DNA of 64,000 nucleotides from a virus (IMGVR_UViG_3300037851_000831:32783-96782), one strand, 5' to 3'; positions 15,510 through 17,929 are shown, counted from the first letter of the stretch. The notes: generated by a model from the letters alone, not told the origin. Numbers and translations are program-made.

Positions 15510-15564
15510 GTTGGTGCTTTTTTATAGGTTTCCCGGATATTTGTCAAGCCCCGGGACGCAGATT

Positions 15565-15755
15565 TTCGGCTCCGGATGCGAACCCGGAGCCGAAGCACCA
15601 CCTCGTTTTTCTTAACAGGAACGAAGAAACCTGTGGGGAGACCGGCAGTGATCCCTCCCCGCCATCTGATTTTAGGTTTCAGCAAACCGGGACGTTCTAG
15701 TTCGGGAGAACAGGAACATTACCTCCACCATCTCCTGTGTAAACAGGAGCGGCGA
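15565..15755 (-). ncRNA. candidate structured RNA downstream of tRNA-Gly (about 190 nt)
   Basis: No credible ORF; stems CTCCTG/CAGGAG, GGGGAG/CTCCCC and an 11-bp hairpin at 15565-15594 with GTTCGCAT loop. Confidence 0.45.
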
Positions 15756-15756
15756 A

Positions 15757-15830
15757 TGGAGCGGGATGGGAGGATTGAACTCCCCTCTCGAACTTGGAAG
15801 GCTCGGGCACAGCCACTATACCAATCCCGC
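15757..15830 (-). tRNA. tRNA-Gly(TCC)
   Basis: GCGGGATTGGTATAGTGGCTGTGCCCGAGCCTTCCAAGTTCGAGAGGGGAGTTCAATCCTCCCATCCCGCTCCA; cloverleaf with encoded CCA. Confidence 0.92.
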
Positions 15831-15847
15831 ACATACTCTAACAAAGG

Positions 15848-15918
15848 GTGCGGGAGTGAGAGTTGAACTCACAACAGCGTGGCTTATGAGACCCGCCGGG
15901 TTACCGAACCATCCCGCA
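15848..15918 (-). tRNA. atypical tRNA with CAT anticodon (Met/fMet-like)
   Basis: TGCGGGA/TCCCGCA acceptor, CTCATAA loop, GTGAG-TTCAACT-CTCAC T arm; 4-nt D loop, bulged anticodon stem, no full CCA. Confidence 0.75.
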
Positions 15919-15924
15919 TAAGGA

Positions 15925-16150
15925 AAGATTGTTTGGGACTTTTACCCCTCGTTGACGAACCCCCGTCGTGCTCAAATGCACTTCGAAGGGACGAGTTTGG
16001 CGCTCCCGTCAAGGAGAACCCCTAGCCCAATCCCAACTGCGGTTTATCATTCACTATCGGGCATAGCCGCCCGACCGGATTACCGACCGGTTCTTCCTCC
16101 TTCAACGGAGGCGTGATATTTGTCAGGAAAGGGAATTGATGTAAAGAACA
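15925..16150 (-). ncRNA. candidate structured RNA (74-nt four-way junction plus long stem domain) ahead of the tRNAs
   Basis: Promoter TTGACT 16179-84 / CATAGT 16157-62, boxA-like TGTTCTTTAC 16141-50; hairpins CCTCC/GGAGG, ACCGG/CCGGT, CGGGC/GCCCG; TTGGGA/TCCCAA and TTGACG/CGTCAA stems. Confidence 0.6.
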
Positions 16151-16217
16151 GAGATAACTATGAGCATCCAGCGACAAAAGTCAAGCCTTCAGTTCATTTT
16201 TATTTCGGAAAGAAGAA

Positions 16218-16317
16218 GAGGGGGAGTCGTTCCTCGCCTTGCGGCGACGCCAACACCCAACAGCGGGAGCCGTCCGGAAAGGAACCTTGCTGTTGTTCCG
16301 GAGGACTCCTCCCCCTC
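16218..16317 (-). ncRNA. candidate 100-nt branched hairpin RNA
   Basis: GAGGGGGAG/CTCCCCCTC closing stem, AACAGC/GCTGTT arm, TCGCC-GCAA-GGCGA GNRA hairpin on the minus strand. Confidence 0.55.
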
Positions 16318-16336
16318 GATTACAATAAACAAAGGG

Positions 16337-16920
16337 TGCCGAGGGCGGGTCGTTAACCCACTATAAAGGATTCAGGCTTCAATTCCCTCCTCCCTCTTGT
16401 TTCCCCTCAGCCATCATTGAAGTTTTACCGGCTGAGGGAGGCGTCGTTGCGCACTCTCCACGGCATGATGATTCAACTTACTACCCAACGCCCTACCCGG
16501 TGGCGAGATTCGCGTTTAGCACCCCCATATTTATTATACAGGCAGTACCCGCCAGCGATTTCCCTCGGCGGTTTCATTCATTATTTTAGTCATGCCACTT
16601 AGACATTTAATTGTTCGGTGTTTGGTTGCGAACCAGAGGAATTCGGTCTTTTACCCTCGATACGTCGATCTTGGCGAGCCCCGTGACGCTTTCCCGGAGA
16701 AACATTCCCGAGTCGGCGCTTCGACTATGCCGGAACTGTGAATCCTCTAAAGGCCCGTCGGTTCGGGATTTCCACCCAAAGCGGTGTGGGGGATGCTCCC
16801 ACTCTTCACATTTTCCAGCCACATCCCGTTACCTCCCACTATAGCCTTCTTTCAGGCTGTCACACGTCCTACCATGTTGCAGGCAAGGCGTTGAGTAGTA
16901 AGTTGAATCTGTAAAGAACG
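16337..16920 (-). ncRNA. candidate large structured RNA: 380-nt domain closed by a 30-bp stem, plus a domain of about 130 nt
   Basis: Arms 16880-16909 and 16470-16499 pair over 30 bp, and all 4 non-WC pairs are G-U on the minus strand; boxA-like CGTTCTTTAC 16911-20; promoter TTGACA 17052-57 / CATAGT 17030-35. Confidence 0.75.
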
Positions 16921-17053
16921 AAAATTGCTGCTGGATTTCCGGAACGATCCGAAGACCGTGAGGACCAGCCGTCCCTCGTGTTCGTGGGTCTTAGCCACTA
17001 CTTGCCGGGTGTTCCTAAGAACATTGATGACTATGACACGTTTTCTGATTTTG

Positions 17054-17929
17054 TCAAGCCTTCACCAAAAGATTTCTCGGAAAAAGTGCAGCCTTCCGAT
17101 TCTCGATGTAGGCATCCAGCGACATGCTGAAGGCAAAGAAATCCTGATGGAGATACGCCTGCCGCGTCACGATATCGTGGCCGTGGTTGAAGATCATTTC
17201 CTTCTGCACGAGAAACGAAATCGCGTCTCCGGTGATGGCCCCTGCCCGACCGAACGGGTTAGCCCAAAACCAAAGATACTCGAACCGAGCGAGCATTTCA
17301 ATCCGTCGCTCAAGATCGATGCTCTCATCGCGAGCCTGCCCGAAGTAGTATTCGCACATGTGCACCATCGAAGGAACATCGCCGTCGTGAACGTGAACGA
17401 TCAGGAACAGGTCGGGATTGTGAATTGGGCGAATGACCAAGCACTGCTCATTCAGCGACGGGCACACCATCATGCGCCACACGCGGCACGTGTGCATTCC
17501 CGTGAAGGTAGGAAGGTCGGGAACCAGCGGAGCATCGACGGTGCCGAAGTGATAACTGTGCACCTCAGCCTTGAACTGACCGAACTCCGATGACAGGTCG
17601 AGGCACTTCCAAAGTTCTCCAGAGCGAGGATGCTTGCGGATTCCCCAACTGTAAGAAAGTGAGCGGCTCGTTCCCTCGAAGCGACGCTTCCAGTAAAGCA
17701 CACCATCCTGCACCATCTGCTTGGCGAAGAACGTGTTATACTTGTGCGCGAGCGAATAGCGCAACGAGAAGATATCCGTCGCGAGTGTCTTAACCGTTAA
17801 TTGTGAGCCCTTTGCGACAGGATACGTGCAAAGTTCGTTATTTTTAACGAATGCAGTAAACGTCTCAAAGTATTCTCTACCAAGAGGATCGTAAGGATAC
17901 TCGCAAAGAGCGGCTGGTGTGAAAGTCAT
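17054..17929 (-). CDS. Fido (Fic/AvrB-like) domain protein with degenerate motif
   Basis: FEYLWFWANPFGRAGAITG at the position of the Fic HPFxxGNGR loop. Confidence 0.5.
   Translation of the reverse strand: MTFTPAALCEYPYDPLGREYFETFTAFVKNNELCTYPVAKGSQLTVKTLATDIFSLRYSLAHKYNTFFAKQMVQDGVLYWKRRFEGTSRSLSYSWGIRKHPRSGELWKCLDLSSEFGQFKAEVHSYHFGTVDAPLVPDLPTFTGMHTCRVWRMMVCPSLNEQCLVIRPIHNPDLFLIVHVHDGDVPSMVHMCEYYFGQARDESIDLERRIEMLARFEYLWFWANPFGRAGAITGDAISFLVQKEMIFNHGHDIVTRQAYLHQDFFAFSMSLDAYIENRKAALFPRNLLVKA

Follow-up and report, generated by a model that had tools for sequence, protein, structure and literature searches.

A gene-free phage locus organized like two tandem stable-RNA transcription units under bacterial-type signals

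What is encoded in a stretch of phage DNA that has its own promoters, a transfer RNA (tRNA) gene and no credible open reading frame (ORF)? We have examined this question for positions 15510–17053, minus strand, of a 64,000-nucleotide (nt) DNA stretch, here called the window, which comprises bases 32783–96782 of the 96.8-kb IMG/VR contig IMGVR_UViG_3300037851_000831. The contig is estimated to be ~47% complete and probably comes from a freshwater metagenome. Genes of the window lie on the minus strand to ~21 kb and on the plus strand from 25 kb, and the gene-free locus is found between the stop codon (17054) of a gene for a protein of 291 amino acids (aa) (17054–17929) and the start codon (15509) of a gene for an Rnl2-type RNA ligase (14433–15509). 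An earlier note on this DNA had interpreted the locus as one polycistronic unit of non-coding RNAs (ncRNAs). Much of that view can be retained: the locus is promoter-driven, lies on the minus strand and has the layout of a stable-RNA operon beside Rnl2. There are, however, two tandem units and not one. We regard it as reasonably probable that the locus is a tandem pair of stable-RNA transcription units of a large lytic phage, which would use the signals by which bacteria express and process untranslated RNAs.

The note had found no credible gene here, and we agree. The longest minus-strand ORF between the two flanking genes is 71 aa, and none of the ORFs of the region begins at the fixed promoter distance that is typical of the phage's genes. 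The 8-mer GGCTTGAC occurs 29 times in the window versus ~2 expected, nearly always in the local gene orientation (the one exception is at 8441), and represents the extended −35 box in a promoter of the sigma-70 type, which in this phage reads GGCTTGAC-N17-CATAGT. At most copies of the 8-mer, an ATG lies ~35 nt downstream of the −35 box and lacks a Shine–Dalgarno sequence, and thus most phage genes appear to be leaderless. Two copies of the full promoter, P1 and P2, fall in the gene-free region, which bears out the two promoters claimed earlier (Table 1). Six bases past their −10 boxes, where the promoters of protein genes have ATG, both read TGTTCTT.

How far is this combination of promoter and leader tied to stable RNAs elsewhere? 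We scanned sequence collections for the pattern GGCTTGAC-N16-18-CATAGT-N5-8-GTTCTT(T). IMG/VR gave three matches, including one in an 88-kb phage contig (G001), 14 nt before a tRNA-Glu gene. The only gene that G001 has in common with the present phage is a helicase, at 35% identity; it has no RNA similar to those of our locus, and coding sequence lies upstream of its tRNA operon. Among 185,579 species genomes, there were four matches. Three are in metagenome-assembled genomes (MAGs) of the Kofleriaceae/Haliangiales, each ending 2 nt before a transfer-messenger RNA (tmRNA) gene, and the fourth precedes the rplJ leader of a Dehalococcoidales MAG. From a sample of 41 Haliangiales genomes, 30 loci were fetched, and in 9 of them GTTCTTTGACA lies directly against the 5′ end of the tmRNA. 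G+C content (GC) is near 52% in the phage versus 66–68% in the three MAG loci. We found no description of a boxA-like leader before tmRNA genes in the literature. The promoter–leader signal is thus a mark of stable-RNA genes in one bacterial order and two unrelated phages. Because of its link to stable RNA in Haliangiales, we propose this order, with moderate confidence only, as the candidate host clade of the phage.

Several observations on these genomes stand by themselves. Haliangiales (Myxococcota) tmRNA genes have a conserved leader, GTTCTTTGACA(T/A), and several also have GGCTTGAC-N17-CATAGT upstream. In one Haliangiales genome (G032), there are ~110 copies of a repeat that contains GTTCTTTGACA, mostly 30–50 nt from contig ends; a multicopy insertion element at which the assembly is interrupted is the probable explanation. 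The tRNA operon of G001 (L011 3920–4200, minus strand, equal to G001:C1 ~75955–76235) consists of tRNA-Glu(UUC) followed by two tRNA-like sequences read by eye, one of which has an insertion of ~30 nt in the anticodon region; ARAGORN calls neither.

It is less clear whether the leader motif should be called a boxA. In gamma-proteobacteria, the boxA consensus is GYTCTTTAANA, whose 8-nt core is bound by NusB–NusE (PMC5725501, PMC3177189). The three boxA-like elements described in the note are all present as YGTTCTT, at 17023–17014 (a coordinate that had been off by one), 16920–16911 and 16150–16141. Over the transcribed non-coding strand of this locus and a second one in the same phage (2.39 kb in all), YGTTCTT occurs five times versus 0.8 expected (P 0.0014), and the arrangement of promoter followed by motif is seen at four promoters across the two loci. 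The core GYTCTTTA is present as GTTCTTTA at 16919–16912 and 16149–16142, but the first copy (TGTTCTTAGG) deviates from it, with GTTCTTAG at 17022. Bases 3′ of the core do not fit the AANA of the consensus. The copy at 16920–16911, CGTTCTTTAC, has no promoter. In Haliangiales, the 16S leaders carry an invariant G(G/C/T)TCTCTGAAAAC and not GTTCTTT (10 of 10). A boxA that recruits NusB–NusE, as the note had it, is thus favored by the match to the 8-nt core at two sites and disfavored by the Haliangiales ribosomal RNA (rRNA) boxA, which is GGTCTCTGAAAAC in all 10 leaders; the label is only partly supported because the clade with the matching promoter–leader signature uses a different rRNA boxA. 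In those 10 operons (L071–L080), the element, G(G/C/T)TCTCTGAAAACTG, lies ~100–350 nt before the 16S start and has a C where the Escherichia coli boxA needs a T.

Unit 1 is ~815 nt long and consists, in order, of leader A, an internal GUUCUUUAC motif, a 30-bp helix around a 380-nt RNA that we call B, domain C and domain D. The helix is the strongest inverted repeat of the window, with 30 consecutive pairs (26 Watson–Crick and 4 G·U), and has the dimensions of an RNase III processing helix, in which at least 20 bp of near-perfect duplex are formed by the sequences flanking an RNA. Its four non-Watson–Crick pairs are G·U only in minus-strand RNA and would be A·C if the plus strand were transcribed. 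Stem and core together (440 nt) fold far better than shuffled sequences (z −4.8). One hairpin of B resembles the 11-nt GAAA-tetraloop receptor. For domain C, a wetland DNA contig and a root RNA contig have a sequence 100% identical to that of our phage. Domain D, with its U-rich tail, is the likely terminator of unit 1, although a simple terminator scan did not call it.

Relatives of the phage provide a view of which parts of this structure are kept. Four public runs hold parts of the stretch and were compared over 14000–18500 (4.5 kb), where uncovered parts are not evidence of absence; the relatives considered here, in the form of Logan contigs, are from soil (X3), a viral metagenome (X4) and a root metatranscriptome (X5). 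X3 is almost identical to our phage, minus 54 nt of an element described below. Across 16693–16924 (232 nt), X4 has 10 substitutions (4.3%) and a 2-nt deletion, versus ~7% in both flanking genes, and there are no changes in the 120 nt at the 5′ end of B, which include the internal motif (identical in X4) and the 5′ arm of the helix. Upstream of 16924, X4 has a different sequence, which terminates in ...AC-N17-CATATC-N9 (judged from 30 of 60 loose letters) and can be read as another promoter copy directly before the motif. Within B, the mismatch G16804/A16743 becomes a C–G pair in the rebuilt variant, extending a helix. The pair U16603–A16590 becomes C–G in X5, whose hairpin then reads CCUAAG...CAUGG, and the X5 hairpin at 16549–16518 has 6 nt more on one strand, 2 nt more on the other and two wobble-to-Watson–Crick changes, with a minimum free energy (MFE) that goes from −17.5 to −30.7 kcal/mol. 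Several further changes convert G–C to G·U or the reverse, and the insertions and deletions inside B of the relatives are a 2-nt deletion and insertions of 2 and 6 nt. In a flanking gene, 13 of the 22 substitutions on a partial list fall at codon position 3 by manual count.

The root metatranscriptome also places the region in an RNA library. Within the 4.5 kb, X5 covers only 16335–16646 and 16866–16896, at a word depth of 30–47, and none of the flanking genes, a pattern that fits an abundant RNA. Both X5 contigs are permuted. One goes from 16459 to 16335, identical to our sequence throughout, and picks up again at 16894; the other goes from 16646 to 16483 and, after 72 unmatched bases, resumes at 16896. 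In the closing stem, 16896 pairs with 16483. Both contigs stop at 16866, as expected where an assembly graph branches. The permutation is most simply explained by tandem cassettes in relatives, with a common inner stem.

Unit 2 (~590 nt) contains RNA E, a tRNA-like element, tRNA-Gly(UCC), a pair of hairpins (F) and a motif resembling the wcaG RNA, and its end adjoins the Rnl2 gene. The note had counted two tRNAs. The tRNA-Gly is solid; the other element is seen only at relaxed thresholds, being missed by default ARAGORN and by the Rfam tRNA model. That element has perfect acceptor and T arms, a 4-bp D arm closed by a loop of 4 nt and an irregular anticodon arm (CAU or CUC). The wcaG-like motif matches RF01761 at 38.2 bits, below the gathering cut-off of 42 (E 4.5e-5 for 2 kb, 5e-7 for the contig). 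In the soil relative, which is ~99.6% identical, exactly 15635–15688 are absent, 54 nt that make up the 5′ half of the motif, and the junction has a microhomology of 3 nt. The hairpin that follows the motif has the tail AAAAUCU and is therefore not a canonical terminator.

Table 1. Coordinates of the features discussed (window positions unless a locus is named).
Feature	Position	Strand	Detail
Promoter P1, GGCTTGAC-N17-CATAGT	17030..17060	-	sigma-70 scan 10/12
Leader A, begins UGUUCUUAGG	16921..17023	-	~100 nt, variable in relatives; fold z −0.9 versus shuffles
Internal boxA-like CGUUCUUUAC	16911..16920	-	one base ahead of the long stem; fits GYTCTTTA core
Closing stem, 5′ arm	16880..16909	-	pairs with 16470..16499; no change in X4 relative
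RNA B core, 380 nt	16500..16879	-	no Rfam family (E up to 10)
B hairpin like 11-nt GAAA-tetraloop receptor (UCUAAG...CAUGA)	16589..16604	-	
B hairpin, lengthened on both strands in relatives	16518..16549	-	X5 variant
Closing stem, 3′ arm	16470..16499	-	pairs with 16880..16909
Domain C, closed multi-hairpin, ~130 nt	16337..16465	-	fold z −2.6
Domain D, branched GC-rich stem, then UUCUUCUUUCC	16205..16317	-	fold z −2.6
Promoter P2, GGCTTGAC-N17-CATAGT	16157..16187	-	−10 box CATAGT
Leader motif UGUUCUUUAC, start of unit 2	16141..16150	-	−10 spacing equal to P1 and phage G001
RNA E, about 220–230 nt ahead of the tRNAs	15920..16140	-	no Rfam match
tRNA-like element	15846..15918	-	ARAGORN at -ps90 only; best Rfam 19 bits, tRNA-Sec
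tRNA-Gly(UCC), encoded CCA	15757..15830	-	ARAGORN; Rfam RF00005 47.1 bits versus cut-off 29
Hairpins F, two, directly 3′ of tRNA-Gly	15692..15756	-	fold z −5.8
wcaG-like RNA motif	15587..15691	-	RF01761 38.2 bits, all 98 model positions aligned
13-bp hairpin between wcaG-like motif and P3	15562..15597	-	fold z −4.7; no U tail
Promoter P3 and Rnl2-type RNA ligase gene	14433..15550	-	PF09414, PHROG 548
Haliangiales tmRNA leader loci	L033 5706-6110, L034 6585-6991, L036 4187-4593		
More Haliangiales tmRNA leader loci	L045, L047, L048, L051, L058, L060, L061, L063, L070		

Lack of ORFs, the promoter family, the stem, the tRNA, conservation in relatives and occurrence in an RNA library are shown directly; RNase III cutting, a Nus-factor role of the leader motif and any function of B are inferred. 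The elements can be assembled into a plausible sequence of events. Host RNA polymerase would initiate at P1 and P2, 6–7 nt past the −10 box, at the GUUCUU(U) leader, and the GUUCUUU sequence would tag the transcript as a stable RNA, by antitermination or another early step. Once the trailer had been made, the 30-bp helix could form and be cut by host RNase III, freeing B as a stable RNA of ~400 nt, in analogy with pre-16S rRNA. In unit 2, RNase P and 3′ trimming would free the tRNA and the tRNA-like RNA, as in established tRNA processing. Because this unit has no proper terminator, part of its transcripts would probably read past the wcaG-like element into the ligase gene. The size and conservation of B and its possible receptor motif suggest a compact folded RNA rather than an antisense regulator; beyond this, our best guess, and a weak one, is a role for B as a scaffold or decoy during infection, in the form of an abundant cargo RNA with structure.

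A number of results weigh against this account. Some X4 changes are incompatible with hairpins of the MFE model, which is therefore partly wrong and unreliable in detail. The claim of at least five folded domains is likewise only partly sustained: the closing stem, C, D, F and the last hairpin fold better than shuffles, whereas leader A, the 380-nt B core alone (z −0.95) and RNA E (z −1.1) fold no better. For B, C, D and E, there is no homologue in IMG/VR, in one JGI scan, in the GenBank phages or in 147 Haliangiales genomes, and the support for structure therefore rests on two partial variants. The X5 contigs come from relatives and give no ends, strand or level, and the absence of the flanking genes from X5 could reflect divergence or depth. 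The first copy of the motif can be sequestered in a small hairpin of its own, and the rRNA boxA of the candidate host clade differs from the phage motif. Finally, there is no RNase III gene on the contig.

Several other explanations deserve consideration. The region, or at least unit 2, might be mainly a long regulated 5′ leader of the Rnl2 mRNA, in which the wcaG-like motif acts in cis in the manner of a riboswitch and the rest is spacer. wcaG has been listed as a probable cis-regulatory riboswitch candidate of 5′ untranslated regions (PMC2864571). In this phage, the motif is on the ligase strand, ~78 nt ahead of the ATG; a strong hairpin overlaps its 3′ end, and motif and ligase are not separated by a terminator with a U tail. 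Nevertheless, the ligase has a standard promoter of its own between motif and ATG, half of the motif is gone in the almost identical soil relative, and such a leader would leave unit 1, the tRNAs and the 30-bp stem unexplained; we hold this possibility to be unlikely. A different view is that short protein genes, or the decayed remnants of genes, are hidden in the stretch and that its structure is incidental. Short minus-strand ORFs do exist, the longest at 16607–16822 (71 aa, with a GTG start), and the poor folding of the B core and E would be in keeping with such a view. But no ORF has an ATG at the phage's fixed promoter distance, the 2-nt deletion of a relative falls inside the longest ORF, and substitutions in that ORF are mostly at the first codon position (manual count), making this the explanation to which we give very little credence.

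Two further explanations concern the 30-bp arms. B and its arms could be a miniature inverted-repeat mobile element or other insertion, the stem representing terminal inverted repeats. Inverted repeats of 28–30 bp do enclose 380 bp. Moreover, the end of a wetland DNA contig, at 16469, coincides exactly with the outer edge of the 3′ arm, and the 5′ arm occurs in two contexts in X5; both observations fit variation in presence or copy number. An insertion seems improbable, however, because there is no target-site duplication at the flanks, the element is present as a single copy in the 97-kb contig and is absent from the other collections searched, and the X5 junctions lie 13–15 nt inside the arm rather than at its end. 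Moreover, the arm mismatches are all G·U on the transcribed strand, and the interior is more conserved than the neighboring genes, with compensatory changes. Alternatively, B, with or without C, could be excised at the helix and closed by the phage RNA ligases into a circular RNA of ~500–560 nt. In the two X5 contigs, downstream sequence is joined back to the 5′ arm (16335/16894 and 16483/16896), the latter two positions pair in the stem, and an Rnl2 gene lies next door, with an Rnl1-like gene 8 kb away on the contig. Tandem cassettes in the DNA of relatives would explain the junctions equally well, the two junctions differ (in one, 72 unmatched bases lie between the arms), contigs cannot tell RNA circles from DNA repeats, and no ribozyme or intron model matches, so that circularization appears quite improbable to us.

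Searches for related RNAs define how new the locus is. Rfam 15 at gathering thresholds returned the tRNA only, and with lax filters and E up to 10 (stretches of 831 and 606 nt), nothing relevant was found for A, B, C, D or E. The Rfam models for GOLLD, ROOL, introns, ribozymes, RNase P, tmRNA and 6S RNA had no match in the region, and ARAGORN together with the Rfam tmRNA models found no tmRNA among the phage RNAs. The suspicion that the locus belongs to no known family thus survives cmscan for its largest RNA, B, but not for the whole, one piece resembling wcaG below threshold. Homologous loci could be collected only as the partial variants in public runs, and none came from IMG/VR, the GenBank phages or one JGI scan. 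By blastn against 50,697 GenBank phages, the tRNA was the only match of the non-coding region; exact and gapped pattern scans of IMG/VR gave matches for the promoter–leader pattern alone; and a 20-mer of the 5′ arm gave, in one JGI metagenome scan, a single chance match in a high-GC coding region. The loci around ligase relatives (37–58% identity) have no similar non-coding DNA and no GGCTTGAC promoters, and cluster entries assign no taxonomy to these ligases. For the 291-aa protein encoded upstream, IMG/VR gave no relative to a single query or to a 4-sequence profile. In the protein database, there is a ligase of 88% identity, encoded on a JGI contig of 1.9 kb, and the 291-aa protein has a homologue of 46% identity on a contig of 11 kb. 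When 20 kb of phage DNA centered on the locus was compared by BLAST with 147 Haliangiales genomes, the matches were weak and short, none fell in the non-coding region of the phage, and none was a convincing spacer. Two candidate similarities were rejected: a GGGUAAAAG twin-hairpin common to B and E, which is not above chance, and a kinship of B with unit 4 of the second locus, for which there is no meaningful alignment.

Two analogies to the locus are bacterial. As in an rRNA leader, there is a promoter, a U-rich leader motif of the GYUCUUU type and then a long helix (30 bp here) around a structured RNA, and, as in rRNA operons, tRNA genes are found in the neighboring unit. The analogy is not exact because the phage cargo is not rRNA, the motif at P1 and P2 is at the very 5′ end of the transcript and differs from the boxA of the candidate host order (GGUCUCUGAAAAC), and neither boxB nor boxC was identified. 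The tmRNA genes of Haliangiales/Kofleriaceae (leader GUUCUUUGACA(U)) have a signal nearly identical to that of the phage, GGCTTGAC-N17-CATAGT-N6-GTTCTTT, directly before a stable RNA. Here too there are differences: the phage RNAs are not tmRNAs, and the spacer between −10 box and motif is AT-rich in the phage and GC-rich in the bacteria.

Among phages, tRNA clusters that also encode stable RNAs are familiar from the species 1 and 2 RNAs of T4 and the stable RNAs of T5. Those clusters are similar to our locus in being polycistronic untranslated units of large lytic phages, with tRNAs, small stable RNAs and RNA repair genes close by. They differ in that there is no similarity of sequence or model and in that the 440-nt stem-clamped RNA is much larger. 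GOLLD and ROOL are large RNAs of phages and prophages that are often near tRNA islands (10.1101/2024.12.08.627333). The parallel that the note drew to them holds for the setting of a large phage ncRNA beside tRNA genes, and there is a hint of tertiary-contact motifs. It does not extend to their models, neither of which matches even with lax filters, and B is smaller (380–440 nt), with homologues only in close relatives. wcaG (RF01761) is known from marine metagenomes and T4-like cyanophages (PMC2864571, PMC9964418). Across the 98 model positions aligned, our motif keeps most of the conserved unpaired bases (UGG.G.GGA, GGUUUC, GUGG.G). In contrast to wcaG, it scores under the cut-off, has non-standard pairs in the first hairpin, is half deleted in a near-identical relative and lies, on the contig of a freshwater phage, upstream of an RNA ligase gene instead of exopolysaccharide or high-light genes. 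Loci of this general kind are already known, as phage tRNA clusters that contain additional stable RNAs and as large phage RNAs beside tRNA islands. New here are an RNA, B, without a family, the rRNA-style packaging of a cargo other than rRNA, and a signal near-identical to that of bacterial tmRNA genes.

How phage tRNA clusters and large RNAs are expressed and processed has rarely been addressed, and in this locus, a phage reuses a stable-RNA promoter and leader that are almost letter-for-letter those of bacterial tmRNA genes. If the processing model is true, it would provide a sequence rule for finding unannotated phage ncRNAs (stable-RNA promoter, GUUCUUU leader and long clamp), point to Haliangiales as candidate hosts of an uncultured lineage of phages and add a new, conserved and apparently abundant RNA with a possible role in infection or counter-defense. 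Were the circular reading true instead, ligases thought of as enzymes of "tRNA repair" would gain a dedicated phage substrate, and the back-joined X5 junctions would be explained. The present value of the locus is limited by the lack of diverse homologues and functional clues.

Regarding the genes nearby, the Rnl2 ligase directly downstream, which the note had named, was recovered by PF09414 (E 2.7e-10), by PHROG 548 (E 4e-58) and by 38–46% identity, over 97–99% of length, to genes of large myoviruses that are annotated as RNA ligase 2. Its neighbors gave no informative protein family. In addition to this gene (14433–15509, minus strand), the contig has an Rnl1-type ligase gene (PF09511, window 5992–7131, minus strand). 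Inverted repeats are also a feature of retrons, for which the 97-kb contig (~47% complete) was examined: the repeats are present, but RVT_1 had no match.

Other parts of the contig have related features. The second gene-free locus, at 26316–27237 on the plus strand, has two promoters, each followed by GTTCTTT (26365, 26734), and a strong terminator; its long-range helices pair ~26511–26531 with 26648–26668 and ~26757–26768 with 27100–27112. It matches no Rfam family, and its sequence is not similar to that of RNA B. The early genes look like a string of modules, each composed of a promoter and a leaderless gene (window 1–33000; for example, 423, 1356, 2642, 19622, 25056 and 27723). At 30436–30520 and 32781–32870 (plus strand), promoters without an ORF drive a common G-rich element (GTGATACNGTNCACANCNGGTGGC...), which may be another small RNA family. 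Outside the window, a gene-free stretch of 800 nt (G000:C1:18051–18847) is packed with GGTAGGTGGGGTACC-like repeats and may be an origin or packaging region.

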